64,000 nt of DNA from Oceanispirochaeta sp. (GCA_963666275.2 CAXXOA010000003.1:288001-352000), one strand, 5' to 3'. Positions 8,476 through 38,449 are shown, counted from the stretch's first letter. Notes: generated by a model not told the origin, from the sequence alone. Program-made: numbers and translations.

Positions 8476-9500
8476 AGGCTCTGACGGTTACAGCACCGGA
8501 AACAGTAGAAATCCGGGAGGTCTCTTCTCCTGAACTGATGCCGGGATTTGTCCGCATCAGAATTGAATACTGTCTTATCTGCACCTGGGAAAAGAGGATC
8601 TTCTCCGGTCAGGCTTCTCTGCCTTTTGTTCCCGGCCACGAAGCTTCGGGAATCATCGAAGAAGTCCATGCCGATACGGTGACCTCTTTCAAACCCGGGG
8701 ATCACGTGGTATTCAAAACCCTGGATCACTGCGGTCACTGCCGCTTCTGCTACACCGGAGAAACCAATCTCTGTACCGGAGTGTCCCGTAAGCGGGAGTA
8801 CGACGGAACTCCCGGAAGCGGGGGAATGGCCCAGTATATCGATCTGGAACCGGGACGGATCTTCAAGGTGAACAAAGATATTCCCCTGGAGATTGCCGCC
8901 TTTGCGGAACCCCTGGCCTGCTGCTATCACAGCATCATGAGAGCCGATATCAAACCGGGCGATTATGTCGGGATATCCGGCGGGGGCATTATGGGGCAGC
9001 TTCACGGTCTTCTGGCTCTTTCCAGGGGGGCGAAGGTCCTGCTTATCGAGCCCGATGAGACCAAAGCCGAACTGGCGCTGAAATCGGGAATCCACAGAGT
9101 TTGTCACCCCTTCAAAGAGACGTTATCCGAAACAGTTGCTGATTTTACAGGGGGGGGACTGCTTGACTGCTATATCATTACCACCCCCCAGCTGGCTATT
9201 GCCGAAGAGGCTCCCCGGCATGTGAGAAACTCGGGCAGCATTATCTTTTACGGCTCCTTCCATCCCAGGGGGACCATTGCTCTGGATCCCAACGGGGTGC
9301 ACTACAGTCAGCATGTGATAACAGGCTCCTACAGCCCCTCGACAGAGGATTTCTTCCGGGCGGCCCGGCTTCTTTCGGAAAGTCTGGTGGATATGAACCC
9401 GTATCTCAACAGGGTTTACTCTCTTGAAGATGCAGAAAGCGCTTTCAGGGACTCCCTGAAACCGGAGAACTACAGGATTGCCATCAAGTTGCAGGATTAG
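8472..9500 (+). CDS. Zn-dependent (MDR) sugar-alcohol dehydrogenase
   Basis: GHEASG, structural Zn motif CGHCRFC...C, AEPLAC, GGGIMG. Confidence 0.9.
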   Translation: MKALTVTAPETVEIREVSSPELMPGFVRIRIEYCLICTWEKRIFSGQASLPFVPGHEASGIIEEVHADTVTSFKPGDHVVFKTLDHCGHCRFCYTGETNLCTGVSRKREYDGTPGSGGMAQYIDLEPGRIFKVNKDIPLEIAAFAEPLACCYHSIMRADIKPGDYVGISGGGIMGQLHGLLALSRGAKVLLIEPDETKAELALKSGIHRVCHPFKETLSETVADFTGGGLLDCYIITTPQLAIAEEAPRHVRNSGSIIFYGSFHPRGTIALDPNGVHYSQHVITGSYSPSTEDFFRAARLLSESLVDMNPYLNRVYSLEDAESAFRDSLKPENYRIAIKLQD

Positions 9501-9564
9501 AATCTCTGCGTTTGACAATAGGAATTGAATGCCTGGTACAGGCAGAATTTTATGGAGGAATTTT

Positions 9565-10899
9565 ATGAAAAAATTGGTGAGTGTGCTGTGTACTCTTCTC
9601 ACAGCGTCGGTTTTTCTGTTTGGCGGAGGTTCCCAGGAAACAGCGGGAACAGACTCTTCCTCTTCGCTCCCTTTCGAGGGTGTCTCTCTGACCATGGCTG
9701 TCTGCGCGGAACAGTATGCGGACTACCTCAAGGTTATGGCGGAATCCTTTGAAGAGGAAACCGGTGCGGAAGTGATGATCGATATCATCGGGTATGTGGA
9801 GCTGTATCAGAAGATAACACAGGACTATGCTTCAGATACAAAACTCTACGATCTGGCGACCGTGGATATCATGTGGACCGGTGAATTCGAAGACAAGGGA
9901 TTTACAATGGATCTGACAGATCTTATGGACGCCGATGCGGATGAGATTGATCTGGAAGACATTATTCCCGTTATGTGGTCCATGGGATCCTGGAACGGAA
10001 AACAGATCGCCTTTCCCATGGCCGGCTACGCCAACAGCCTGATCTACCGCTCGGACCTTCTTGCCGATCCTGCTGAGATGGCCGCTTTCGAAAGCAGATA
10101 CGGATACGAACTGGGGGTTCCCGAATCTCTGGAAGCCCTGGAGGATATTGCCGAGTTCTTTACAAGACCTGATGAGAACCTTTACGGTCTTGTCGCCAAC
10201 GGAGCCAGAGGCTCTGCCGTGGCCCAGGACTGGATGGAGTATATGAGAGCCTTCGGCGCCTCCCTGTTTGATGCAGAGGGCAATGTGAGCATCAATACAC
10301 CCCAGGCGAAAGAGTCTCTGGAATTTTTTGTCAGAATCTTTGACAACTATGCCCCTCCCGGAGCCATCGGTTACTGGTGGGACGACAGAGAATCCGCCTA
10401 CAGAACCGGACAGGCTGTGATGCAGTCCAGCTGGAGTATTGCCAGAGCCGGATACGAAGATCCCGATATCTCTCTTGTGGTGGGTAAAACCGGTATGACC
10501 GAAACTCCGAAAGTGGATTCCGATGACTCTCTCTACGGTGTCGGCGGTTGGGGTGTCGGTATCAATTCCGATATCGATGACAGGAACAAAGAGGCTTCCT
10601 GGGCCTTTGTCAAATACATCACAGGGGCGGAAATGCAGAAAAAATGGATGCTCAACGACGGAGCTCCCATCCGCTATTCCACTCTGACCGACAAGGAACT
10701 TCTGAAAGAGAAACCCTGGATGCCCGCTATGCTGAATGTGTTTGAAAACGGAGACGGAGACTACCGCCCCCGGGGACCTGAAGCAACAGAGATCCAGAAC
10801 GCTCTCGGCCTGAGAGTCAACCAGGCCATCACCCATGAACTGACTGTAGATGAAGCTATCACAAAGATGGAAGAAGATATTACAGCCATAATGGAATAA
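9565..10899 (+). CDS. Sugar ABC transporter (CUT1) substrate-binding protein
   Basis: Start at MKKLVS after SD ggagg; spirochaete-type 'GGGSQE' N-terminus; SBP family 1 features (LIYRSDL, GGWGVGIN, AWAFVKY). Confidence 0.9.
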   Translation: MKKLVSVLCTLLTASVFLFGGGSQETAGTDSSSSLPFEGVSLTMAVCAEQYADYLKVMAESFEEETGAEVMIDIIGYVELYQKITQDYASDTKLYDLATVDIMWTGEFEDKGFTMDLTDLMDADADEIDLEDIIPVMWSMGSWNGKQIAFPMAGYANSLIYRSDLLADPAEMAAFESRYGYELGVPESLEALEDIAEFFTRPDENLYGLVANGARGSAVAQDWMEYMRAFGASLFDAEGNVSINTPQAKESLEFFVRIFDNYAPPGAIGYWWDDRESAYRTGQAVMQSSWSIARAGYEDPDISLVVGKTGMTETPKVDSDDSLYGVGGWGVGINSDIDDRNKEASWAFVKYITGAEMQKKWMLNDGAPIRYSTLTDKELLKEKPWMPAMLNVFENGDGDYRPRGPEATEIQNALGLRVNQAITHELTVDEAITKMEEDITAIME

Positions 10900-10908
10900 A
10901 GCTATTTC

Positions 10909-10941
10909 GACAGTATTCCCGCTCTGTGCGGGGATACTGTC
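10909..10941 (+). other. Intercistronic stem-loop after the SBP gene (probable mRNA stabiliser or attenuator)
   Basis: GACAGTATTCCCGC-tctgt-GCGGGGATACTGTC with no U-tract. Confidence 0.6.
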
Positions 10942-10965
10942 ATATCCTGCCAAACGAGGTTTTCA

Positions 10966-11859
10966 GTGTTACGGCATAGATCACAAAAAAAATACTATAA
11001 AGATAGGATCGCCCTTTTTCTTATTCCCCTGAGTCTGTATATGGTGGTGTTCTTTCTCTATCCCGTCGTCTATGATATTTTTATCAGTTTCTTCGACTAC
11101 TCCCTGGGTGGGGAACGGGACTTCAACTACGGAAAAAACTACATCGCCATGTTCGGGGATGAACAGTTCCTGGGCTCTTTGAAGACTACCTTCCTTTTTA
11201 TCCTTTACTGCGTGGTAAGCCAGATGGTCCTGGGGATTGTCATCGCGATGCTTTTCAATATCAAGTCGAAGTTTATCGAGTTCTGCAGAACCCTGATCCT
11301 TCTACCCACGGTTTTTACTCCCCTGGTTGTGGGGCTGCTCTGGAAAGCCCTCTACCATCCCGATCAGGGTGTGATCACCTACTATCTGAGACAGATCGGT
11401 CTGGATATAGGCAGAGGTCTGCTTGTGGAAAGGCACCTGGCTCTTATGGGAGTTGTCATTATAGATATCTGGGAGTGGACTCCTCTTGTGGCAATCATCA
11501 TCCTTGCGGGTATGAAAAGTCTGCCCAGGGACCCCTATGAAGCGGCTATGCTGGACGGTGCGGGAAAAATATCGATCTTCCGTTACATTACACTGCCCTT
11601 GCTGAAACCGACTCTTCTGATTGCCGTCCTGATAAGGATCCTGGATGCCATGAAGGTCTTCGATACCATATTTGCCACCACCAACGGAGGCCCAGGAACA
11701 GCCACCACCGTGGCCAACCTGAGGATCTACGAAGTGGGAGTCCAGCAGCTGAATGTGGGATATGCCGCAGCCCTGTCCAATGTTCTCCTCCTCTTCGGAA
11801 TCCTTCTGGGGTCTCTGTTTATGCATATTCTCTATAACAACAAGGAGAGGGTTTTATGA
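10966..11859 (+). CDS. Sugar ABC permease (MalF-like)
   Basis: EAA loop YEAAMLDGAG..IFRYITLPLLKP; TNGGPG; multiple TM segments. Confidence 0.93.
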   Translation: MLRHRSQKKYYKDRIALFLIPLSLYMVVFFLYPVVYDIFISFFDYSLGGERDFNYGKNYIAMFGDEQFLGSLKTTFLFILYCVVSQMVLGIVIAMLFNIKSKFIEFCRTLILLPTVFTPLVVGLLWKALYHPDQGVITYYLRQIGLDIGRGLLVERHLALMGVVIIDIWEWTPLVAIIILAGMKSLPRDPYEAAMLDGAGKISIFRYITLPLLKPTLLIAVLIRILDAMKVFDTIFATTNGGPGTATTVANLRIYEVGVQQLNVGYAAALSNVLLLFGILLGSLFMHILYNNKERVL

Positions 11860-12689
11860 CAATAAGCGACAACCGGGAGTATACCCGCTGGATCCGTTAT
11901 ATTTTTATCGCCCTGATCCTGGGATTCTTTCTCATCCCTGTTCTGTGGCTACTGGAAACATCTCTGAAACTGAAAATCGATATGTTCAAACTGCCGCCGG
12001 TCTGGTTCAAGTTCCGGCCCACCATGAAGAACTATGACTATATTACAAGCTCCATGCCTATCCTGAAATGGGGCGGCAACAGTCTGGCTATTTCGCTGGG
12101 AACAATGATCCTTTCGCTCCTTCTGGGAGTTCCCGCCGGGTATGCCTTTTCCAGAGTAAAGTTCAAGGGCCGCTTTTTTCTGCTGACCTTTATCCTCCTG
12201 GCCCGGACTCTGCCTCCTGTGATCATTGTCCTGCCTTTCCGGATTCTTATGCAGAAAATGGGACTCTTCGGAACCAGGACGGCGGTTATCCTTATCGATA
12301 CCATATACAACGCCTCCTTTACCGCCTGGCTGATGTCGGGAATCTTTGAAACCGTTCCGGAAGAGCTGGAGGAGGCTGCCATCATCGACGGCTGCGGAGT
12401 ATTCAAGGCTTTCTACAAAGTCATCGTTCCCCTGAGCCTGCCCGGTCTTGTGACATCGGCGCTCTTCGCTTTCATCTACTCCTGGAATGATTTCATATTC
12501 GCCATGACCCTGACCTCGCCCAGAACGGCGACCCTGCCGCTGGGAATGCTCAGTACCTTCGGTATGATGAGTGTGGGCTGGACCAATATGGCGGCTATGG
12601 GAGTTATTTCAGTGTTTCCGGTGATGATCCTTTCGCTCTGTCTCCAGAAGTACTATGTCAGCGGACTGACCTTCGGAGGAGTCAAATAG
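11856..12689 (+). CDS. Sugar ABC permease (MalG-like)
   Basis: ELEEAAIIDGC, FIYSWNDF, QKYYVSGLTFGGVK C-terminus. Confidence 0.93.
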   Translation: MTISDNREYTRWIRYIFIALILGFFLIPVLWLLETSLKLKIDMFKLPPVWFKFRPTMKNYDYITSSMPILKWGGNSLAISLGTMILSLLLGVPAGYAFSRVKFKGRFFLLTFILLARTLPPVIIVLPFRILMQKMGLFGTRTAVILIDTIYNASFTAWLMSGIFETVPEELEEAAIIDGCGVFKAFYKVIVPLSLPGLVTSALFAFIYSWNDFIFAMTLTSPRTATLPLGMLSTFGMMSVGWTNMAAMGVISVFPVMILSLCLQKYYVSGLTFGGVK

Positions 12690-12690
12690 A

Positions 12691-13890
12691 GTGATCCGGC
12701 GATGTTACACCAATCTCAGTCTCTTTGCGGGCAGGGACTTCGAATACCTGCCCGAGGCGTCCATCTATACAGAAGGAGACAGGATCTCCGAGATCAGAAG
12801 CGGAACCGATCCCTCGGGTCTCGATATGGAAGGCTCCCTGTTCCTTCCGGCCTTTATCAACGGTCACTCCCACCTGGGAGATACTGGTGCTAAAGACCTG
12901 GGAATCGGCCTGTCCCTGGAGGAGGCCGTGTCGCCGCCGGATGGTTTAAAGCACCGGTATCTGAGGAGCCAGAGCCGGGATGAGCTTGTCTCTACTATGC
13001 GCAGGGGCCTCCTGGAGATGCTTCTGTGCGGAATCACAGCCTGTGCGGATTTCAGGGAGGGCGGCCCTGAAGGCTCTGCCGCTCTCAGGGAAGCTGCTGG
13101 AGGGCTCCCCATTCAGGTTCTCATCCTGGGGAGACCCCTGACGGAGGAGAAGGACAATCCCGAAGAGTGTCTGAGGGAAGTTGACAGGATTCTGGCTGTG
13201 GCGGACGGCCTGGGAATCCCCTCTATGACTGCCTTTTCCACTCCTTTCCTGAAAGGGATAAGAAAAAAATATCCCGGCAAGATCCTGGCCGCCCATGGTC
13301 TGGAAGCATCGGAAAATATCCTTCAGAAGCAGGGATTGTCCCACTCCGCAGAGCTGGGGAAAATCCTCAGGGATCCCCTGGATTTTGTTGTACATCTGAC
13401 TCAGGGAACTCCCCGGGACATCCGGAAGTTATCCCGGAGGGGAATGAAAATTATAAGCTGTCCCCGGACCAATGCGATTCTGGGAGACGGAATCCCCCGG
13501 ACAGACCTTTTTGCAAAGGAGGGGCTGACCTGGGGAATGGGCAGTGACAATATGATGTTTTCCAGTCCGGAAATGCTGAAAGAGGCTGATTTTGCCTCCC
13601 GTTCCATCCGGGGGCTACTGAAAAAGCCAGACTGCCTTCATGGGTCTCTTCTGAAAAATATCACCTGGATGGGGGCAGACGTGCTGGGGCTTGGAAAAGA
13701 TTACGGCTCTCTGGAGCCGGGGGCTTACGCCAGCTTCATAGGCCTTTCCGGCACTTCTCATGCTGTCTCGGGTTCCCATAATCTCCTTGACAGTATCATT
13801 CACCGGACAGGGCTCAGCGATATCCGATATTTTGTCTCCCACGGAGTGGACGTCCTATCCCGGGGGGAATGGCAGCTGGAAGGGTTCTGA
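12691..13890 (+). CDS. Amidohydrolase (cytosine/nucleoside deaminase-related)
   Basis: PAFINGHSHLGD, DFREGG, VVHLT, CPRTN, GMGSDN motifs. Confidence 0.8.
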   Translation: MIRRCYTNLSLFAGRDFEYLPEASIYTEGDRISEIRSGTDPSGLDMEGSLFLPAFINGHSHLGDTGAKDLGIGLSLEEAVSPPDGLKHRYLRSQSRDELVSTMRRGLLEMLLCGITACADFREGGPEGSAALREAAGGLPIQVLILGRPLTEEKDNPEECLREVDRILAVADGLGIPSMTAFSTPFLKGIRKKYPGKILAAHGLEASENILQKQGLSHSAELGKILRDPLDFVVHLTQGTPRDIRKLSRRGMKIISCPRTNAILGDGIPRTDLFAKEGLTWGMGSDNMMFSSPEMLKEADFASRSIRGLLKKPDCLHGSLLKNITWMGADVLGLGKDYGSLEPGAYASFIGLSGTSHAVSGSHNLLDSIIHRTGLSDIRYFVSHGVDVLSRGEWQLEGF

Positions 13891-13897
13891 TCCGGTT

Positions 13898-13932
13898 AAA
13901 AAAAAGGATCTTCCATTTCGGGAAGACCCTTT
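13898..13932. terminator. Probable bidirectional terminator
   Basis: A-tract, then GGATCTTCC-atttc-GGGAAGACCC, then TTT, between convergent genes. Confidence 0.6.
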
Positions 13933-13947
13933 ACTCAGTTCAAATCT

Positions 13948-14643
13948 TTACTGAATCACACCGTTCACCCAGGTTCCGCTTCTGGCTTCGCCCTCTGCCG
14001 AGGGAATCGTCAGAATCATATCCGGGAGGATCAGACGGGGATTTTCCGGCTGGGGGAGCTTGTCTTTATTGGCTTCGTAGATAAGCTTCCACTTCCAGGG
14101 ATCTCCGTAGACAAAATCGTAGCCGGCTATATTCCACAGGCAGTCCCGGTTATCGGGAAGCAGTCTTACTTTGTAAGCTGCCACTTTGGCTCCATCCGGG
14201 CGGATATAGTGGATCACTGACATCACTTCCAGGGCTTCCAGAGACTTGTCATAACTTGTCAGGTACTCTTCGTCCTGAAAGAGCTGATAGGCCTCTTCGT
14301 AGAGAGCCTTTCCCGACTGATAGGCTTCAGGAAAGTTCTCTGCCGCATTCACATTGTCTGCCGAGCGGATCTGTGTTTCCACCCTGCGCAGAGCTGAGTT
14401 GGCTTTGTACCGGTTCAGCATCATTTTGATCCAGGCATCAGACCGTTCGGCGTAGACTTTGGATTCTTCCGCCAGCCGTTTGGCTTCCAGATAGTCGCCA
14501 TCGTCAAAGGCCTGTTCACTCTGCCTCTTCAGCTCCAGTGATTTCCTGTAATCGGGGTTATCCTGGAGGGACTGGGAGAAAAGGGCTGTTGTAAAACAGC
14601 TCAGGACTATCAGGGTAAAAAGCAGGGCAGCTGTCCTTTTCAT
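13948..14643 (-). CDS. Exported helical protein with C-terminal LysM-like domain (BB0323-like)
   Basis: Signal peptide; C-terminal YKV...DCLWNIAG..VYGDPWKWKLIYEANK...NPRLILP..ILTIP, the spirochaete LysM variant. Confidence 0.8.
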   Translation of the reverse strand: MKRTAALLFTLIVLSCFTTALFSQSLQDNPDYRKSLELKRQSEQAFDDGDYLEAKRLAEESKVYAERSDAWIKMMLNRYKANSALRRVETQIRSADNVNAAENFPEAYQSGKALYEEAYQLFQDEEYLTSYDKSLEALEVMSVIHYIRPDGAKVAAYKVRLLPDNRDCLWNIAGYDFVYGDPWKWKLIYEANKDKLPQPENPRLILPDMILTIPSAEGEARSGTWVNGVIQ

Positions 14644-29823: not shown

Positions 29824-31821
29824 CTACAGTGTGTCGTCATCTCCCAGGGCGGTTGTCTGGAGGGGGCTTTTAAAATAGAAAAAGATGACACCGATAATAA
29901 GGCAGTTCACAATAGAGGCGGTAGCAAAAAGATGCCACTGGGGCCGACCCGAGGAAAGATTCCCCACCAGGGAGAAGAGCTTGATGCTGATTGTGAATTT
30001 CTCCTCCTGATTCAGAAAGAGCAGGGGAGCCATGAAACCGTTCCAGGCGGAAAGGAAGGCCAGAATCCCGTTTGTGGTCAGGATGGGTAAACTCAGGGGG
30101 AGTATGATTTTTACCATATATTTCAGAGGGGAAATCCCTTCCAGTTCGGCCGCCTCCCTGTAGGCGGGAGGGATTTTCTCAAGATAGGCGATAGAGGTTA
30201 TCAGCCCTGTGGTCAATGAGTGGTTCAGATAGATCAGGATCAGGGGGAGATAGCTGTCCAGAAGGTGGAGCCTCCGGAAAAGGGCGTACAGGGGGATCAT
30301 GGAGTGCATTCCCCCGTAAAGCCCTATGATCTGGAGCCCTGTGATGACCGCAAAGACTGTTTTCACTCCCCGCTCTCTGAGAACCAGCGCCGAGGGAAGG
30401 ACTATAAACGGAGTCAGTATCCCCGCAGCGGCGGCAATGGCCAGGGTGTTGAGAAAATAGTGCAGTATATTCTCCTCCACCAGGATCTTTCTGTAGTTGG
30501 AAAGGGTGGCAAAGGGGGGAATCAGCGAATCAATGGAACAGGCACCGATGCCGGAAAGGCTGAGCCAGATCACCAGGAAGAATATGAGCAGTGAGGCAGC
30601 CATAAAGGTATACTTTAAAAGAGCGGTCCCCGCAAGGTGAAGGGTATTCCTGATTTCCGGAAACAGGAGCCGGGAATCTGTCTTTTCCTCCTGCTGCGTG
30701 ACCAGAAGGGGAATCAGGGCCACCAGGATTTCCGGGTGGAACCCTTCGAAAAATCCGGCTTTGAATATCCAGCGGAGATTGATAAGGCAGTGTACCAGAA
30801 AGACTGTCATATAGGACTTCCTGCTGCGGAACCAGGCCGCCAGGTAGATCCCTCCCCAGATAATGCCCCATATTCCTCCCATAAGAACCTGGGAGACTAC
30901 AAGGACTATGAGGGGGATCCTGTGTGATCTCTTCTCCCTCCTCGCCGCCAGCCATAGGCCCATGAGGACGATCACAAGCCCGGCCAGACAGACTGCATAG
31001 GCCGATGTTATCCCCAGATCTTCTGTGGTTTTGAACACCTCATAGAGGAATATGTCCAGTGTGGTTGTAGCCCCGATGATATGGCGGTTTGTCATGCCTG
31101 ATACCAGGGGAGGGCCTCCGGTGGTCATAAGGAAGAGCAGGTTGAACTCTTTGAAAAACTTGAGAAAGTTGATAATTGTCATGGCCCCGATGGAACCCCG
31201 GATTTGGGGAAGCAGGATTTCTTTGAAAATAATATAGGAGTTGGCCCCGTCGATCCTGGCCGCTTCCGAATAGGACAGGGGGATCTTCCGGAAGCTTCCC
31301 CAGAAGAGAAATGTCATGAAAGGAACTGTCATCCAGAGACTCACCCACAGGGCTGCCAGAAAGGCGGCGACCGGATCGTTCATCAGATCTACAGGGATCC
31401 TGAAAAGAGTACGGAACAGGGAGTCTCCTCCGTCTCCATGAAAAAACGAACGCCAGAGCGGAACCGCTATATAGATGGGAGTTCCCCAGGGTACCAGGAG
31501 GGAGAGATAGAGCAGGGTGATCTTTTTCTTCTTTCTGCTCAGGTACCAGGCCAGTTTCAGAGATATCCCCAGAGAGAGCACCGTGTTGGCAAAGGCCCAT
31601 AAGAGGCTTATTTTGAAACTGTATAAAAAACCTTTATCTGAAAGAATATAGAGATAATTGTCCAGGCCCGCTGCTGTCCGCCGGCCGTATATGTCATGGA
31701 AAAAGGAAGTGAAAACAGCTTCGCCGAAAGGGGCTATACCCACAAGCAGAACAATCCCGGCCATAGGCAGGAGCAGGAGGCTGTCTGCGGGAAATCCCTT
31801 TCTTTTCAAAGCTGTTTTCAA
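29824..31821 (-). CDS. Fused two-domain CUT1 ABC permease (MalF-like + MalG-like)
   Basis: Two EAA loops: YSEAARIDGA..IFKEILLP with TTGGP, and YREAAELEG..MVKIILP with FLSAWNGF. Confidence 0.88.
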   Translation of the reverse strand: MKTALKRKGFPADSLLLLPMAGIVLLVGIAPFGEAVFTSFFHDIYGRRTAAGLDNYLYILSDKGFLYSFKISLLWAFANTVLSLGISLKLAWYLSRKKKKITLLYLSLLVPWGTPIYIAVPLWRSFFHGDGGDSLFRTLFRIPVDLMNDPVAAFLAALWVSLWMTVPFMTFLFWGSFRKIPLSYSEAARIDGANSYIIFKEILLPQIRGSIGAMTIINFLKFFKEFNLLFLMTTGGPPLVSGMTNRHIIGATTTLDIFLYEVFKTTEDLGITSAYAVCLAGLVIVLMGLWLAARREKRSHRIPLIVLVVSQVLMGGIWGIIWGGIYLAAWFRSRKSYMTVFLVHCLINLRWIFKAGFFEGFHPEILVALIPLLVTQQEEKTDSRLLFPEIRNTLHLAGTALLKYTFMAASLLIFFLVIWLSLSGIGACSIDSLIPPFATLSNYRKILVEENILHYFLNTLAIAAAAGILTPFIVLPSALVLRERGVKTVFAVITGLQIIGLYGGMHSMIPLYALFRRLHLLDSYLPLILIYLNHSLTTGLITSIAYLEKIPPAYREAAELEGISPLKYMVKIILPLSLPILTTNGILAFLSAWNGFMAPLLFLNQEEKFTISIKLFSLVGNLSSGRPQWHLFATASIVNCLIIGVIFFYFKSPLQTTALGDDDTL

Positions 31822-31835
31822 TTTACCTGAATTCT

Positions 31836-33209
31836 CTATTCTACAATCAGTTTACTGATATTCCTTACGGCTTTGATTCCATCGGGAACCAGAGCGGCAT
31901 TCTGATCCCAGACAAGCACCAGGGGCCTTTCCCGGTCCGAGAGTTCCGAACCGTCTCCGTAGTACATGGCCAGGATGACATCCTGATTTCCGATCACTTC
32001 TGAGGCATCAAGGGTAATGGAAAAACCGTCTTCCGCCTCCAGAGTCACCTGATTCACACCGTCATAGCGGCTGAACATCTCAAACAGAGGCAGGCCCATA
32101 TACTCAACGGAGGATTCGCTTTTTCTGTCGTAGTAGGAAACTACAGATTTATGGGTGGACACTCCGCTCTGCAGGGTCTGGCGATCAAAAACTTCCTTCC
32201 CTCCGGGACCGTCCATGGTTATGGCAAAATCAGTGAAGGATTCCTGACTGATCATGATCTTCTTCACCATTCTGGCTGAAACATGACCTGTAATTTCAGG
32301 ATTTTCGGGCCCTACTTTTACAAGACGGATATAACCGGGATCTTCGGGCATATACTCACCGTTCTCTTTGAATGCCAGGATCCAGGTGCCGTTCTCCTGA
32401 TCCAGCAGCTGGCTGCCGCTGTAGTCCATCTCATAGCCGTCCATCGCCTGGATTGTGATTGTCATATCCTCTGTCAGGGTGGTGTAGTCGTTTATGAGAT
32501 CCACCAGCTTGACCCCGCCCCAGGTGTACTGGAAGTTATTTCCGTAGGAGTTGGTGTAGTTCCCCCTGTCTTCCAGATAGTAGGGGTGATTCTCCATCTC
32601 GGAGATGGTAAAGGAGGCATTTTCGGAACCGATTGACAGGAGCAGCTCGAAATCGTTGGTTTCCAGAGACACAGGCTGGAGTCCCAGGCTGATGGAGGCA
32701 AGATCTCTGACCCAGTACTGGCCTGAAATATCGCCGATCAGGGTCGGGGCCATGGGGCTGCCGTCCTGACTGATCCCCAGGTAGAGATCCCCGGGATTGA
32801 AATCCGAAGTCATCAGAGTCTGGGCATAGCCGTCCCCGGCGGTCAGGGTCAGTTCATACCCTGCAGTCCATTTTTCCGTCCGGAAGGATGCGGGCATGGA
32901 ACCGTCCGCATCATCTACCATGGCGATGATCTCTTTCAGGGGAAACCCCTGGTAACTGTGGAGTTCCCCTTTTTTCTCGTATTCCAGCGGCACGAGAAGC
33001 TCCGGGTTCTGCTGGATCCAGCTGTTCAGGTTGGATTCCCATACTTCATCGTTTCGCACTCCCGACAGCTCTATCTTCCAGCCTTCCCCTTTGGGGGTTG
33101 CCTGGGAGACGGCATCGGGAGTCGTACCTTCATGATCTGTTGAGGCACAACCGGTCAGAACCAGGAACCCCATGAGTGCCAGGAGTCCTGCTGCAAACAT
33201 TTTCTTCAT
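31836..33209 (-). CDS. Lipoprotein with three tandem molybdopterin-binding (sulfite oxidase/MsrP fold-like) domains
   Basis: Lipobox LTGC; three repeats of [YW]xG.xLx[ED]...A.DG[YF]...L.....G......P..L......VR.[ILV]..I; SD aggag. Confidence 0.75.
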   Translation of the reverse strand: MKKMFAAGLLALMGFLVLTGCASTDHEGTTPDAVSQATPKGEGWKIELSGVRNDEVWESNLNSWIQQNPELLVPLEYEKKGELHSYQGFPLKEIIAMVDDADGSMPASFRTEKWTAGYELTLTAGDGYAQTLMTSDFNPGDLYLGISQDGSPMAPTLIGDISGQYWVRDLASISLGLQPVSLETNDFELLLSIGSENASFTISEMENHPYYLEDRGNYTNSYGNNFQYTWGGVKLVDLINDYTTLTEDMTITIQAMDGYEMDYSGSQLLDQENGTWILAFKENGEYMPEDPGYIRLVKVGPENPEITGHVSARMVKKIMISQESFTDFAITMDGPGGKEVFDRQTLQSGVSTHKSVVSYYDRKSESSVEYMGLPLFEMFSRYDGVNQVTLEAEDGFSITLDASEVIGNQDVILAMYYGDGSELSDRERPLVLVWDQNAALVPDGIKAVRNISKLIVE

Positions 33210-33232
33210 TTTTTTCTCCTATCTGTTCAGCC

Positions 33233-34726
33233 TCAGGGGCTGTTTTTCAGCTCTTCATCCAGAAGGCTCTGCCCTCTGTCCAGAATCTGTTCGGTCGTCA
33301 ATTGTCCTGAAAGGGCGAAACGAAGCAGTTTCCACATGATATTTTTATACACGGTAAAAGATTTCTGCGAGGGGATCACGGTTCCATCCGCAGCGCTGTC
33401 CAGCATTATCCTGTAGTAGGGGTTTCTGTCCCCGACCAGATTCGCCGCTTCTGTGTTGGAAGGAAGCTTGGTCAGGGCAATGGGAAAGTCCTGCTGGTAT
33501 CCGATTCCTGTCAGATGCCCTATGAGAGCCCGGGCAAGGAGGGGATTCCGGGATTTTCCCGTTATGGCGAATGCTTTAAAGTCCAGCAGGGGAGAGACTT
33601 GTTTTCCGGTTGTTTCATTCCGGGGAAAACCGGCAATACCGAAGGGAATCCCCAGCTCCTGGAAAAGAGGGATTGTATAGGAGGCGGATAGGATGACTGC
33701 CGCTTTTCCCGTGGCAAAATAGGAGGTCATGGCGTCCCTTTCCAGGGGCTTGAAGTAATCAGTATCCGTAAGGGCTGTCAGGTATTCCAGAGCCTGTCGG
33801 GTGGGCCTGTCATTGACAGTGATTGTACCATCCCTGTTGAGAATCTCCTCTTTGCCGAAGGCTGCCTGAAAGGGGATCAGCCAGTTGATGGAGTAGGCAT
33901 TCCATGTCAGGGGCACTTCTACCTTTCCTGTCAGAGAGGACGCCAGGCTCTCCAGCCGGTTCAGAGTCAGATCAGGGTACCGGGAAAGATCAATATAGTC
34001 GGGGTTATAGAAAATGAGCTGCGTATCGTAGTAGAAAGGGGCGGCCCACTGTTTCCGTCCTGACTGAAATGTCCTGTTTCCCCGGGAGTCCAGAGGGGAG
34101 GCTATCCAATCGGGAATGGTCTGCAGGGCTTCTGTCCGGATTAGTCTGTTCATGTCTCCCGCAGAAACCATAATCAGATCCGGTACATCCCCGCCGCCAC
34201 GCAGGATGGACAGGTATTTGGATGCGGGATCCGGAAGGGTGGTTACATGGATCTCCAGACCGAAACGGGCGGCGTAGGACTCTATCTCCTCTTTCAGCTC
34301 CTTTGTTCCTTCCCAGCTGATCCAGACTTCAAGCTTCGTATTCAGGAGCTTTTCACCTGCAATATCGATGGCTCTGATATCCCTGAATACCTGTCCGTTC
34401 TGCCAGTGAAGATCCCATGTGCCCGGTGAGCCTTCTATCAGGCAGGTCCTGTTTATACTATCGGGAAAGGACGCAATCCGGAGGGATTCCTGAGAACCGC
34501 CGCTCTTGATATTCAGTTCCCAGGCGTCGTAGAGAGGGGGGAACAGATCGCTGAGAACCATACCCCGGGGAGAGTTCTCTCCCGGAAGGGCATAGGCTCT
34601 CCGGGTAAGCTCCCCGTGAGGATAGCTGTTCCGGAGTTCTCCGTTCAGAGTTATGTCTAAGGCGCTCACCGACAGAAGGGGCACGAAAAAAAACACTGTC
34701 ATGCAGTGCTTCAGAGTTCTTTTCAT
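33233..34726 (-). CDS. Extracellular solute-binding protein (family 1) with extra N-terminal domain
   Basis: Signal peptide; C-terminal maltose-BP-like part (GGDVPDLI, APFYYDTQLIFYNPD, FATGKAAVIL); start MKRTL after SD aaaggaag. Confidence 0.85.
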   Translation of the reverse strand: MKRTLKHCMTVFFFVPLLSVSALDITLNGELRNSYPHGELTRRAYALPGENSPRGMVLSDLFPPLYDAWELNIKSGGSQESLRIASFPDSINRTCLIEGSPGTWDLHWQNGQVFRDIRAIDIAGEKLLNTKLEVWISWEGTKELKEEIESYAARFGLEIHVTTLPDPASKYLSILRGGGDVPDLIMVSAGDMNRLIRTEALQTIPDWIASPLDSRGNRTFQSGRKQWAAPFYYDTQLIFYNPDYIDLSRYPDLTLNRLESLASSLTGKVEVPLTWNAYSINWLIPFQAAFGKEEILNRDGTITVNDRPTRQALEYLTALTDTDYFKPLERDAMTSYFATGKAAVILSASYTIPLFQELGIPFGIAGFPRNETTGKQVSPLLDFKAFAITGKSRNPLLARALIGHLTGIGYQQDFPIALTKLPSNTEAANLVGDRNPYYRIMLDSAADGTVIPSQKSFTVYKNIMWKLLRFALSGQLTTEQILDRGQSLLDEELKNSP

Positions 34727-34730
34727 AGGG

Positions 34731-34830
34731 TCTTCCTTTCCAAACACGGGAGGTAGGACTGTTTCCGGTCCTACCCGGCGGCTCAGTTTTCATGACAGAC
34801 ATCTGTTTTAGAAATATGAGCTCGGAAGTC
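34731..34830 (-). ncRNA. Molybdenum cofactor (Moco) riboswitch, P3-containing form
   Basis: Minus-strand read GACUUCCGAGCUCA...UGAGC CGCCG GGUAGGAC-CGGAAACA-GUCCUACC UCCCGUGUUUGGAAAGGAAG. P1 CUUCC/GGAAG, P2 GCUCA/UGAGC, P3 with ACAG-augu-CUGU, P4 with GAAA loop, and the conserved CUCCCGUnUUUGGAAAGGA 3' block overlapping the SD. Confidence 0.9.
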
Positions 34831-34850
34831 GATTCTTTTATATCGATTGA

Positions 34851-34879
34851 ATTGTAACAGGGATTTACTTTTATGGCAA
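34851..34879 (-). promoter_or_regulatory. Sigma70 promoter for the riboswitch-led operon
   Basis: Minus strand TTGCCA-17 bp-TACAAT with extended -10 TG, about 20 nt upstream of the riboswitch. Confidence 0.75.
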
Positions 34880-35037: not shown

Positions 35038-35673
35038 ATGCAGGGAATTGTCAATTATCCGATGTTTCTTCTGGCGGGTATCCTTCTCAATATCACCCCC
35101 GGAGCCGATACCATTTACATACTCAGCCGCAGCGTCGCCGGAGGCCGGAGTGCGGGGATCCTGTCCACTTTCGGCGTTTCTACAGGAATCCTGGTCCATA
35201 CCACACTGGCAGCCCTGGGACTGTCGGTGGTACTCAGAGAATCCCTTTTTCTCTTCTCTCTTGTGAAATATACAGGAGCGGCCTATCTTGTCTTTCTGGG
35301 AGCCCGCAGCCTTCTGCAGAAAAAGGGGGAAATGTTTGGCCTGGACAGACCCGGCAGACAGGAGGCATCCCGGTGGAAGCTCTATTTTTCCGGTGTTCTC
35401 ACCAATGTGCTGAACCCTAAGGTGGCCCTGTTCTTTCTGGCTTTTCTCCCGCAGTTTATCAATCCTGCCCTTCCCCGGCCGGGCTCGTCCTTCTTCCTTC
35501 TGGGATTGACGTTCACCTTTACAGGGACTCTGTGGTGTCTGTTCATAGCTGTTGTGGCATCCAGAGTCTCCCGGCTCCTCAGGGAGTCTCCCTCCTTTTC
35601 CATCCTTCTGGAAAAAATGGCCGGAGCTGTCTTCCTGGCTCTGGGGGTCCGGGTCGCCCTGAGTAAAAGCTGA
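35038..35673 (+). CDS. LysE/RhtB-family translocator
   Basis: ITPGAD, G...G, GAAYL..LG, TNVLNPKVALFFLAFLPQF. Confidence 0.93.
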   Translation: MQGIVNYPMFLLAGILLNITPGADTIYILSRSVAGGRSAGILSTFGVSTGILVHTTLAALGLSVVLRESLFLFSLVKYTGAAYLVFLGARSLLQKKGEMFGLDRPGRQEASRWKLYFSGVLTNVLNPKVALFFLAFLPQFINPALPRPGSSFFLLGLTFTFTGTLWCLFIAVVASRVSRLLRESPSFSILLEKMAGAVFLALGVRVALSKS

Positions 35674-35752: not shown

Positions 35753-37270
35753 TTAGGGGAGAAAAAACGGGGCATGATTGGCTGTGAAAACAGGAGGGGT
35801 TCGTTTCAGTATGGTCCCCAGTTCGGGGATCTTGCGGAAATCTCTGTCCAGAAAATCCCTGACCTGCCTTCTGTTCCACCCCTCGGGATGGGCGAATTCG
35901 CTGTAAAGGGAGAGGTCTCCGTCATAAAAACGGTTTACCGCCAGGTCCTTTGCTTCTTCACTTCCTATGGGCATATTGAAAATAGAGACATTCAGAAAAT
36001 CAATATTCGCCGCGTTCTCCAGAACATAGTCCCTTGTGCGGAAGGCTTTTTCCCGGTTTTCCGATGGGGTTCCGAACATGATATACACATAGGTCCCGAT
36101 CCCCGCCTCTTTCAGATTGGCCAGTATGGTCTGCACTTGATCCGTGCGGATGCCCTTTTTCAGGCTGTCTAGTACGGTCTGATCTCCCGATTCCAGTCCC
36201 AGGCAGAGCATGACGCATCCCGATGCCGCCAGCTTGCGGCAGTAGGCTGCCCCTGTCATTTCGGGAAGGAAACGGCTGAACCCGTACCAGGGGGCTCCCG
36301 GGGGATGATTGAGGATCTTCTGCATAAACTGCCGGCTGATTTCACTGTCGCAGAGATGGATCAGCCGGGGTTCGTGCCTCTCCGTCAGGGTTCTGAGCTG
36401 TTCCAGCGACTCCTCCGGCGGGTCTTCGCAGTAGGGGTTGTCCTCCCACAGTTCGGAGCAGAAGGTACAGCGCTTCCAGGAACATCCCAGTGATGCGGTA
36501 AAGGGCAGAATTTTTCCGGGAGTGAGATAGTCCCTGCCCGGCTCTCTTTTGTAGATCTCGTCAAAAAAGGGCGTTCCCGGGCCTTTGTACTCCCTGCCTG
36601 TAAACTTGACTATCTCCTCTTCGCCCGGTCCGTTCTGGACCCTGTGGGCCAGCTGGTAGAGGAACACTGTATCTGAGGGGCCTTTGATCCAGGAGTTGAT
36701 CAGTCCCCCGCCGAGCTGTACTTTCACTCCCGGAAAGTTTTTGCGGATAAAACCGCACATGGCCATTCCTGTGAGAGCCTGACTCAGATAGCCCAGGGAA
36801 ATCCCCACGAATTTCTCGCCGCTTTTCTGAAGCAGTCCTGTCAGACGGCGGGAAAACCAGGGATAGAAAAGGTTCTCCTCCGGGTGTTCCCAGCTGTGGA
36901 TCAGATCCTTTGAATTCAGCGGTGAAAGCTGAGGATCCTGATAGTTGGCAGGCGAGACAATCACATTCCGGGAGGCTGCAGGAAGGGCAGAGGCTGCCAT
37001 GTAGCGGATATGGGATACCTTTTTTTTGTACTCTTCGAAAGTGAGGGGATCTCCTGTGAACTGCAGAAAGTGATCTTTCCTTTTCCGGATCATCAGGGAT
37101 TTGGGATCCTCCGGATTGGCAGGGGGCTGGTCACAGAGCCAGTGAAATCCTTCGAGAGCCCCGTCCAGAAGGGTCACCGGTTCCCCTGCCGTGATGAGGG
37201 CTCCCGCCAGACGGGAGAGGGCTACGGGTGGTTCGCAGTTCCGGACCTGAGGAGGATGGATCAGGAGCAT
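35753..37270 (-). CDS. Radical SAM protein (B12-binding-like N-terminal domain)
   Basis: CSWKRCTFC (CxxxCxxC), LGLESGDQ.VL..LKKG, YIMFGTPSE; N-terminus MLLIHPP. Confidence 0.88.
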   Translation of the reverse strand: MLLIHPPQVRNCEPPVALSRLAGALITAGEPVTLLDGALEGFHWLCDQPPANPEDPKSLMIRKRKDHFLQFTGDPLTFEEYKKKVSHIRYMAASALPAASRNVIVSPANYQDPQLSPLNSKDLIHSWEHPEENLFYPWFSRRLTGLLQKSGEKFVGISLGYLSQALTGMAMCGFIRKNFPGVKVQLGGGLINSWIKGPSDTVFLYQLAHRVQNGPGEEEIVKFTGREYKGPGTPFFDEIYKREPGRDYLTPGKILPFTASLGCSWKRCTFCSELWEDNPYCEDPPEESLEQLRTLTERHEPRLIHLCDSEISRQFMQKILNHPPGAPWYGFSRFLPEMTGAAYCRKLAASGCVMLCLGLESGDQTVLDSLKKGIRTDQVQTILANLKEAGIGTYVYIMFGTPSENREKAFRTRDYVLENAANIDFLNVSIFNMPIGSEEAKDLAVNRFYDGDLSLYSEFAHPEGWNRRQVRDFLDRDFRKIPELGTILKRTPPVFTANHAPFFLP

Positions 37271-37271
37271 C

Positions 37272-38282
37272 TCAGAGGCTCTCTTTTCTGTAGGTCATGG
37301 TCATTTTTTCAAGGTCCCGGCAGATTTCATCTCTCAGATCACGGGGTTCCAGGAGTTCCGCCTGGTCTCCGAAGGACAGGATCCAGCTTTTAATATCCCG
37401 TCGTCCGGATGTGGTCATTTTCAGGATCACCGATCCGTCGCTTCCCAGGGATATTTTCTGATTGGGTGTCCACTGCCTTTCCCGGATATACCGGGACTGG
37501 GCGGGGGCAAAACGGACTGTCACATTCAGAGGTTCATCCCAGTTGATTCCCCAGGCTCCGCCGAGAAGCTGCTGAGGATCAATATCCACCGGTTCTTCAA
37601 AGCTTTGTTCCAGAACCTCCAGGCTCGTGAATCTCTCTACCGCTGTGGTCCGGATGGTTTTCTCAGGCAGGGTCTGGATAAAGCAGTAGAGCCCGTCGTT
37701 CCACTCATAAAATCGCAGGGGGTTGAACAGGATCTCCTTTTTTGTGTTGTTCCGGAATGAGAAATATTCCGCCCTGCAGGTCCGGCGCTCAATGGCTGCG
37801 GAGATCAGCTCCTCCAGGAGCCTCTCCTTGCCCTCCAGGTTTTTGAATTTCCGGGGAACCGAAAGGAATACACGGGAGAAGCGGTCGATCAGTGTCTCCT
37901 CTTCTGTTTCGAGATGAAACTTTTCCAGTCTTGTCTTCAGGGTCTGTATGGTCTGTTTCAGCTCGGTTTCGTAAAGAGCAGTGCTTCGGGAGAGGATCAG
38001 GTAAAGCACAAGGACTTCTCTTTTGTTCAGTTCCAGACGGGGAACCCTGCCCTTGGGGGCTCCCTGGAAATAGTCCTCCATGATGCACCAGCGTTTCTGT
38101 TTTTCCGGATTCTCCAGCTGCATAAGGGGAAAGCCCAGCTCTTCGAAAGATTCGAAAAGCCGGTATACCGAGCGTCGGCTGATACCCAGTTTTTCCTGCA
38201 GGGTGGCTATTGTTACCCCTGAAGGATGGGAGAGAAGTTCAAAACCGTTGAGAAACTGTACAAGATTCCTGGCTGCAGGCAT
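37272..38282 (-). CDS. HTH-WYL-WCX transcriptional regulator (YafY/PafB-like)
   Basis: N-terminal wHTH (LQEKLGISRRSVYR..L...GFP), WYL-like core (Y.S...P...GLYC...IRT..VERF), WCX tail (WILSFGDQAELLEP.DLR). Start 38282 or 38294. Confidence 0.9.
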   Translation of the reverse strand: MPAARNLVQFLNGFELLSHPSGVTIATLQEKLGISRRSVYRLFESFEELGFPLMQLENPEKQKRWCIMEDYFQGAPKGRVPRLELNKREVLVLYLILSRSTALYETELKQTIQTLKTRLEKFHLETEEETLIDRFSRVFLSVPRKFKNLEGKERLLEELISAAIERRTCRAEYFSFRNNTKKEILFNPLRFYEWNDGLYCFIQTLPEKTIRTTAVERFTSLEVLEQSFEEPVDIDPQQLLGGAWGINWDEPLNVTVRFAPAQSRYIRERQWTPNQKISLGSDGSVILKMTTSGRRDIKSWILSFGDQAELLEPRDLRDEICRDLEKMTMTYRKESL

Positions 38283-38449
38283 GATTATCCACATTAATCC
38301 GAAACACTTTATTGGTAAAGCGTAAAGCTGAATTTTATGTCTTTTCCGTGACTGAGGGGGACTCCGGTTTTCTGCAGAAAATCATTGCTTCCCGGGACTA
38401 TATTCAATATTTTATATAAATAGAAACTAAAACATCAGGGAGAGTATCT

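Follow-up and report, generated by a model that had tools for sequence, protein, structure and literature searches.

The DNA considered here is a window of 64,000 nucleotides (nt) from Oceanispirochaeta sp. (GCA_963666275.2, CAXXOA010000003.1:288001-352000), and the subject is a minus-strand operon of three genes, coding for a substrate-binding protein, a lipoprotein and a fused permease, which lies behind a riboswitch of the molybdenum cofactor/tungsten cofactor (Moco/Tuco) class. With a confidence slightly above even, the operon can be read as a binding-protein-dependent ATP-binding cassette (ABC) importer of the Mo/W pterin cofactor itself (Tuco or Moco), or of molybdopterin or a late precursor. 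Because the free molecule is highly unstable, all bacteria that use this cofactor are, to our knowledge, generally assumed to synthesise it themselves. Import of a Mo/W pterin had been proposed in a first-pass annotation made from the DNA alone, and it is supported as far as computation goes; the substrate itself we infer.

The operon is preceded by a well-defined RNA element. Scanning with all Rfam models (cmscan) revealed a match to RF01055, the Moco/Tuco riboswitch, covering model positions 1-135 with 77.6 bits against a gathering score of 36 (E 4.6e-17), which is the sole Rfam match at gathering score in the window; the complete Moco riboswitch that the first-pass annotation had placed at 34731-34830 lies inside it, and the covariance-model search which that annotation had proposed as a check is thus strongly positive. 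The block for stem P3 is deleted in this aptamer, which assigns it to the P3-less subclass. A passage of Regulski et al. (PMC2408646) reports that P3-less copies track organisms with the tungsten cofactor; the riboswitch of the operon is of this tungsten-associated type and its host is a tungsten user. The 3' end of the aptamer, GGAAAGGAAG, sits 7 nt ahead of the ATG at 34726, thus the strand that closes stem P1 doubles as the ribosome-binding site (Shine-Dalgarno sequence) of the first gene, just as had been predicted; seven related loci show an equivalent layout. The predicted promoter was also found, exactly at the expected place, with 12 nt between its end and the riboswitch match; it is identified by consensus and, since the region holds eight promoter-like sites where shuffled sequence averages 4.6, is weak evidence when taken alone. 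By analogy with the E. coli moaA riboswitch, the RNA would act as an OFF switch.

The three genes follow one another with intergenic gaps of 23 and 14 nt, in agreement with the tight spacing first described. The binding protein combines a Sec signal, an all-beta N-terminal domain and a MalE-fold body; SBP_bac_1 spans residues 148-411, leaving about 125 extra N-terminal residues, and the earlier description as a family-1 binding protein with an additional N-domain is therefore correct. The closest sequence in the PDB is the Thermotoga MalE 2gha (E 1.4e-18). The AF2 model, built from 41 sequences, has a predicted local distance difference test (pLDDT) score of 94.8, and its residues 107-476 superpose on MalE structures with Z of about 40 (6dts_B: root-mean-square deviation (rmsd) 3.0, 361 residues aligned). 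The sequence, PDB and fold matches all point to the MalE type and not to ModA, TupA or WtpA; from sequence, the body is a genuine homologue of MalE, which belongs to the binding proteins that carry organic solutes. The N-domain (the first 105-106 residues of the model, approximately) is modelled confidently as all-beta; the fold search gave no fold for it, the list being filled by matches of the MalE body. Kinship of this N-domain with the lipoprotein domains could not be established, the hhalign probabilities of 0.8% and 6% being negative or marginal.

The second gene product is the most distinctive component of the operon. It carries the lipobox LTGC, and its N-terminus, MKKMFAAGLLALMGFLVLTGC, reads as a lipoprotein signal with no twin arginine, followed by three tandem domains of the SUOX fold. 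Oxidored_molyb (PF00174) covers residues 222-327, in domain 2, with 36.9 bits, and the AF2 model obtained from 59 sequences (pLDDT 88.3) is grouped by Foldseek and VIA-align both with the Moco domains of the sulfite oxidase family and with PruR. Indeed, the lipoprotein superposes on the sulfite oxidase Moco domain 3hbg with Z 15.8 (rmsd 2.5, 140 residues), domain 2 on Vibrio cholerae PruR 7kp2 with Z 15.8 (rmsd 2.6, 133 of 138 residues), and domain 3 on Klebsiella PruR 7rkb, a neopterin complex, with Z 15.0 (130 residues) and on Agrobacterium PruR 7kos with Z 14.6; for domains 2 and 3 together, Z values against four PruR structures range from 14.4 to 15.8. These two domains are also mutually homologous (hhalign 92.6%, E 4.7e-7). 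Thus, of the three molybdopterin-binding-like domains first proposed, domains 2 and 3 are firmly established by fold, while domain 1 is only a divergent copy, with an hhalign probability of 18.7% against domain 2.

Sequence likeness is much fainter: the whole lipoprotein has no match at E <= 1 among PDB sequences, the domain 3 profile retrieves nothing relevant there, and the best profile match of domain 2 is PruR 7kom at a marginal E of 0.13. In this weak alignment a D-G-Y of domain 2 falls opposite the N-x-Y with which PruR holds its pterin, and the matching strand, in alignments read by eye, has DGY in domain 1 and DGF in domain 3. Passages of PMC11194511 and PMC13259868 describe PruR as a periplasmic pterin binder with the SUOX fold, an N-terminal export signal and no Mo-ligating Cys, which clasps the pterin between a Tyr and a Trp. 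The alignment of the 59 lipoprotein family members likewise has no invariant or nearly invariant Cys, and the mature form of the window protein has none at all, hence no Mo-ligating one. Periplasmic enzymes of the sulfite oxidase family need export by the twin-arginine translocation (Tat) pathway, their cofactor being inserted in the cytoplasm. Since the lipoprotein has neither a Cys ligand nor a Tat signal, it is not a conventional molybdoenzyme and could not be loaded with cofactor in the cytoplasm; the hypothesis of a periplasmic enzyme was therefore rejected, and its modelled domains resemble the PruR pterin binders rather than enzymes.

Co-folding of the binding protein with residues 40-457 of the lipoprotein scored 0.74, while the best of three controls reached 0.01. 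The mark applied is one that 116 of 157 solved complexes and 2 of 215 mismatched pairs reach, counts which are only a rough guide here because own alignments were used. The runs share at least 58% of their contacts, with a partner pLDDT of at least 82, and the confident modelled contacts connect domain 1 of the lipoprotein (residues 80-81, 119-133 and 162-164) with the junction between the N-domain and the MalE body of the binding protein. This complex model supports binding between the two proteins.

The third gene codes for a permease in which, as first described, MalF-like and MalG-like halves are fused: the MalF model matches residues 46-289 and the MalG model residues 395-649. Weaker matches are to models of molybdenum transporter permeases (TIGR01581, 56 bits; modB, 46 bits). 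Permease homologues of 665-692 amino acids (aa) come after the lipoprotein gene in related loci. The operon therefore shows two features of a carbohydrate uptake transporter 1 (CUT1) system, namely a family-1 binding protein of MalE fold and two membrane domains of the MalF/MalG type. Coordinates of the features are collected in Table 1.

Table 1. Features of the operon, in positions of the window.
Feature	Position	Strand	Basis
Fused MalF-like/MalG-like ABC permease, 665 aa	29824..31821	-	two BPD_transp_1 stretches
Lipoprotein, 457 aa, lipobox LTGC, three tandem SUOX-fold domains (~40-180, ~180-325, 326-457)	31836..33209	-	PF00174, AF2 model
Substrate-binding protein, 497 aa: Sec signal, all-beta N-domain, MalE-fold body	33233..34726	-	SBP_bac_1 (PF01547), AF2 model
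Moco/Tuco riboswitch aptamer RF01055, P3-less variant	34717..34839	-	cmscan
Sigma-70-like promoter TTGCCA-17-TACAAT, TG before the -10 hexamer	34851..34879	-	consensus scan, 10/12 matches

Homologues of the lipoprotein were found by a word-indexed search, with 232 matches at E <= 1e-3 in spirochaete assemblies, where they are named 'molybdopterin-dependent oxidoreductase' or 'hypothetical protein'; its profile matched 717 proteins at E <= 0.001 among 1.84 billion representatives, 129 of them at E <= 1e-30. Seventeen operon loci were compared (the window, L014-L018, L019-L024, and those of genomes G552, G582, G596, G612 and G625), and in every one of them, as far as the contig extends, the binding-protein gene is followed by those of the lipoprotein and the fused permease. 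RF01055 lies just upstream of the binding-protein gene at or above gathering score in nine of these loci (the window, L018-L024 and G612, the last with 36.2 bits), distributed over two orders, which answers positively the question, raised by the first-pass annotation, of whether homologous operons keep the riboswitch; it scores below that threshold in G596 (31.5 bits), and L017, where a permissive scan (E <= 1) did not detect it, has its upstream sequence cut. All eight operon-linked copies that were aligned miss P3 and terminate in GGAAAGGA, and seven of them have a usual start codon no more than about a dozen bases further on, whereas in L021 none is evident at that distance. The genes around the operon vary from locus to locus: no conserved sugar-catabolic setting, which had been named as a possible refutation, was found at any annotated locus, and outside the window the neighbours are not sugar genes; in L022 they include FdhD, MobA and a molybdopterin oxidoreductase. 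As a separate observation, PruR-like domains of the lipoprotein family also occur as 4-9 matched stretches in metagenome proteins of about 800-3100 aa (P0168, P0175, P0192, P0213, P0221 and others).

The other targets of the riboswitch place the operon in a wider context. The genome of the window has three RF01055 copies, all P3-less, and the second precedes genes for a TupA-like protein, a permease and an ATPase, followed by moeA, moaA, moaC, a MOSC-domain gene and moaB/mogA. RF01055 occurs in 18 of the 38 genomes of the window's order, where the other targets inspected were tup/moe/moa operons, genes for aldehyde:ferredoxin oxidoreductase (AOR), and a FecCD/Peripla_BP_2 transporter with moeA. 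The presence of the same riboswitch on tup/moe/moa, AOR and FecCD targets indicates that the operon belongs to a tungsten-cofactor regulon, and in such regulons end-product repression marks the genes that supply that product.

Two of these other targets deserve a description of their own. The third P3-less copy of the window's genome (G000:C1:296000-311500, L005 about 9368-14602, minus strand) heads an operon similar to E. coli ydhYVW, with a YdhY-like ferredoxin, an AOR-family enzyme, YdhW and FdhD, then TatC and TatB; the arrangement hints at an AOR-type complex, Tat-exported or membrane-facing, that the cofactor would control. In the relatives G431 and G416, RF01055 (L027 175-5770 and L034 266-5124) precedes the gene of a small protein, Big_5 or unassigned, and then those of a FecCD permease, an ABC ATPase and a Peripla_BP_2 protein and an unassigned open reading frame (ORF), with MoeA in L027; the set is a type II ABC importer within the cofactor regulon, possibly a tungstate/molybdate system similar to MolABC.

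The operon was seen only where AOR genes occur. The lipoprotein was found in none of 400 other genomes of a phylum-wide sample, and the survey was therefore moved to the order level. AOR genes are present in 15 of 15 operon genomes. In the window's order the lipoprotein occurs in 7 of 38 genomes, that is in 7 of the 21 with AFOR_N and in none of the 17 without; in a second order, around G438, it occurs in 7 of 201 sampled genomes, with the operon in 7 of the 10 whose best AOR reaches 200 bits or more and in none of the other 191, a cut that was chosen after the scores had been seen. The operon lies 4-24 kb from a high-scoring AOR in G438, G439, G552, G625, G612 and G596, and in G596 an AOR cluster comes directly after the permease.

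Biosynthesis genes were sought in all 15 operon genomes. MoaC was found in nine of the 15 operon genomes, the window's included, and not in G428, G430, G438, G582, G596 and G612; in these six, searches for MoeA_N and for the C-terminal domain of MoaA (Mob_synth_C) were also negative, and MoeA_N was not found in three further operon genomes of the second order. Neither MoaE nor a homologue of the TupA-like protein from the genome of the window was found in G438, G428 or G430. The same searches were positive in G000, G402, G439 or G552, which indicates that they worked. Hence six of 15 operon genomes have AOR and no detectable moaA, moaC or moeA, the combination that the first-pass annotation had suggested looking for. 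G438 is a single closed chromosome of 3.29 Mb with two AOR-family genes, and its sole MoCF_biosynth match is in an ORF of 425 aa; G428, which is 90% complete, has a single RF01055 copy, and this lies on the present operon. The co-occurrence of cofactor-dependent enzymes, missing genes for the pterin and for metal insertion, and a cofactor-sensing RNA on a transporter is what would be expected of an auxotroph importing the finished cofactor. That such uptake lets some anaerobes drop the whole pathway, even tungstate uptake, and live on the cofactor of their neighbours is a proposal to which we give somewhat less than an even chance.

MoaE (PF02391) was uninformative and was excluded from the calls of auxotrophy: it was found in only 5 of the 38 genomes of the order, though 21 have MoaC and 21 have AOR. 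The MOSC-domain gene of the moa operon (L004 6337-6780) matches the MoaC/MOSC fusion model PRK14499, and the large subunit of molybdopterin synthase may have been replaced or be too divergent to detect. In G438 the operon adjoins a catabolic island that includes a 920-aa xanthine-dehydrogenase-family gene. This minus-strand region of 25 kb (L036/L037, G438:C1:1524000-1550000) contains amidohydrolases, M20 peptidases, the xanthine-dehydrogenase-family enzyme, a Bmp-type ABC transporter, a DHO_dh-like protein, AOR with ferredoxin, and a sigma-54 activator; its content suggests nucleobase catabolism that depends on two pterin-cofactor enzymes.

What is seen directly comprises the RNA and the way it overlaps the ribosome-binding site, together with the protein folds, the order of the genes and the counts over genomes; from these a mechanism may be proposed in which the ligand, its hand-over between the proteins, the ATPase and the OFF logic are what we infer. 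The lipid-anchored protein, judging from the fold of its PruR-like domains, would capture the pterin outside the cytoplasmic membrane and, as the structure model supports, would dock through its first domain on the binding protein; by homology, the MalE-fold body would pass the ligand to the MalFG-type permease, and transport would be powered by an ATPase encoded elsewhere, the operon having no ATPase gene. When cofactor is ample, the P3-less riboswitch would bind it, P1 would hide the ribosome-binding site, and translation of the first gene would stop.

Several points weigh against import of the cofactor. Free cofactor is very labile. An ABC ATPase gene is absent from the operon in every locus annotated; the window genome has several ATPase genes whose products share 41-47% identity with a 358-aa ABC ATPase of a related locus. 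The riboswitch was not found at six of the 17 operon loci: L014, L015 and L016, even at E <= 1, and G552, G582 and G625, searched over the whole genome at E <= 0.001. The window genome encodes moaA, moaC, moaE, moeA, tupA and AOR genes, that is all the biosynthesis genes sought, so that import is not needed there and would be at most a supplement. Five of the six putative auxotrophs are draft assemblies, two of them 90% and 73% complete. In the second order an AFOR_N match (E <= 1e-20) is found in 136 of 201 genomes and MoaC in only 31; 116 genomes have AFOR_N but no MoaC, and 112 of these lack the operon, so that genomes commonly carry an AOR-like gene and no biosynthesis genes, a combination that alone does not require this transporter. 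Most of these AFOR_N matches come from a paralogue of about 570-600 aa with lower scores (75-150 bits), which may need no cofactor or obtain it otherwise, or the assemblies may be incomplete. G515, G536 and G571 have a high-scoring AOR, but neither MoaC nor the operon was found in them; MoaA was also sought in G571 and not found, and there the AOR lies 16 kb from the contig start, so that an operon at the distance seen in its relatives, 24 kb, would lie beyond the contig. Since related genomes are not independent, all these tallies are descriptive, not statistical. A further difficulty comes from PruR, whose pocket, according to a passage of PMC11194511, is shortened and thought unable to take Moco.

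This last point is also what speaks for a transporter or sensor of a non-cofactor pterin, of the neopterin or monapterin type, with a link to the tungsten cofactor that is regulatory only, as the closest solved relatives of the lipoprotein bind small pterins. Domain 2, however, matches the enzyme family itself (PF00174, as above), and the known synthesis of the cofactor runs from GTP via MoaA and MoaC without such pterins; there would be no evident reason for a Tuco riboswitch, for the association with AOR, or for the genomes devoid of the pathway, and we assign this explanation a low probability. It is also unlikely, to a somewhat lesser degree, that only an early or middle precursor still devoid of metal, such as cyclic pyranopterin monophosphate (cPMP) or molybdopterin, is taken up, and that the cell finishes it with its own MoeA and tungstate uptake. 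Such an activity would suit the window genome and the eight other operon genomes with MoaC, several of which have MoeA and TupA; moreover, cPMP is the most stable intermediate, and other riboswitch regulons often hold precursor transporters. The failure to find MoeA_N in the six MoaC-less genomes and in the three others of the second order is the main objection, because in those genomes a metal-free pterin could not be completed by the known route.

Import of tungsten or molybdenum as an organic chelate, or in another non-oxyanion form, with the lipoprotein domains re-used to hold the complex, would agree with the known targets of the riboswitch, which include metal transporters (in a passage of PMC2408646, and in the tup operon of the window genome), and with the weaker permease matches to TIGR01581 and modB. 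We consider it rather improbable, since the fold is that of pterin binders, the binding protein is not of a metal-oxyanion type (ModA, TupA or WtpA), and the metal alone would be of no use in genomes where MoaA, MoaC and MoeA are missing. As to an ordinary oligosaccharide transporter, on which the riboswitch and the domain resemblance would have no functional meaning, the best family matches are indeed MalE, MalF and MalG, and the convergent neighbours in the window include a sugar kinase and a transketolase; however, the recurrence of the riboswitch in two orders, the lack of conserved or sugar-related neighbours elsewhere, and the restriction of the operon to genomes with AOR genes make this explanation very hard to sustain. 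Import of the Mo/W pterin cofactor or of a late precursor is thus the reading that we retain.

Comparison with known systems helps to define what would be new. Likeness to PruR (7kos/7kou, 7kom, 7kp2, 7rkb) extends to the SUOX fold, Sec-type export and the lack of a Mo-ligating Cys; however, PruR is a single soluble domain of about 170 aa whose partner is a DcpA-type signalling enzyme, whereas the lipoprotein has three tandem copies on a lipid anchor and its partners are parts of an ABC transporter. MalEFGK2 is matched by the body of the binding protein (Z 40) and by the permease halves, but the operon differs from it in the extra N-domain, the fusion of the permease halves, the accessory lipoprotein, and the lack of malK and of a sugar-catabolic setting. 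ModABC and TupABC are the usual transport targets of RF01055, and tupABC is under the same riboswitch in the window genome; their binding proteins, PBP_like_2 or SBP_bac_11, carry oxyanions, while here a MalE-like protein is associated with pterin-binder domains. The closest parallel in logic is the BtuFCD cobalamin uptake system with its B12-capturing surface lipoproteins, where RNA-mediated repression of uptake genes by the cofactor, a capturing lipoprotein, and auxotrophs that keep the transporter are also found; BtuFCD is, however, a FecCD-like type II system with another riboswitch, whereas the present operon is a MalEFG-like type I system.

No bacterial importer of the Mo/W pterin cofactor was found by full-text searches of open-access papers, which agrees with the earlier statement that none of this architecture was known to be characterised. 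Table 3 of a regulon survey (PMC3766115) includes uptake classes for B12, thiamin, riboflavin, queuosine and folate, and none for Moco. The dietary uptake of Moco by C. elegans provides a precedent for the use of ready-made cofactor, in an animal and with no relation to the operon; little is reported to be known on how the cofactor moves. The principle of a riboswitch-controlled ABC importer for cofactor salvage is well known, the novelty residing in the substrate class and in a lipoprotein with three PruR-like domains.

A dedicated importer, if confirmed, would alter the reading of genomes that have molybdo- or tungstoenzymes but no moa/moe genes, and would add this cofactor to the nutrients counted as exchanged among microbes, so that its cross-feeding in anoxic communities would resemble that known for cobalamin. 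It would change the annotation of proteins now named 'maltose-binding protein MalE', 'extracellular solute-binding protein' or 'molybdopterin-dependent oxidoreductase', and would give the PruR class of pterin binders, placed so far in signalling, a role in transport as well. It would also provide natural proteins that may bind or stabilise the cofactor, useful for cofactor-delivery work.

Some minor observations concern the surroundings of the operon. In the window, a LysE-family exporter gene (35038-35673, plus strand) is divergent from the promoter region of the operon and is followed by genes for a 505-aa radical SAM protein (35753-37270, minus strand) and for a WYL/WCX-domain regulator (37272-38294, minus strand); no link of these three genes to the operon was seen in other loci. 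A membrane ferredoxin gene similar to NapH/NosR lies just downstream of the operon in L017 (4053-5193), with an FMN_bind gene beside it, and in L018 (9944-10693); its product could supply electrons outside the membrane, for example keeping the pterin reduced. Finally, a fourth small gene of 166-170 aa overlaps or trails the permease in L020 (7091-7594), L022 (9260-9772) and L024 (9038-9538); it has a weak match to the P-loop family NTPase_1 (PF03266) in two of the three (L020 and L022), and its product may handle the cargo on the cytoplasmic side.

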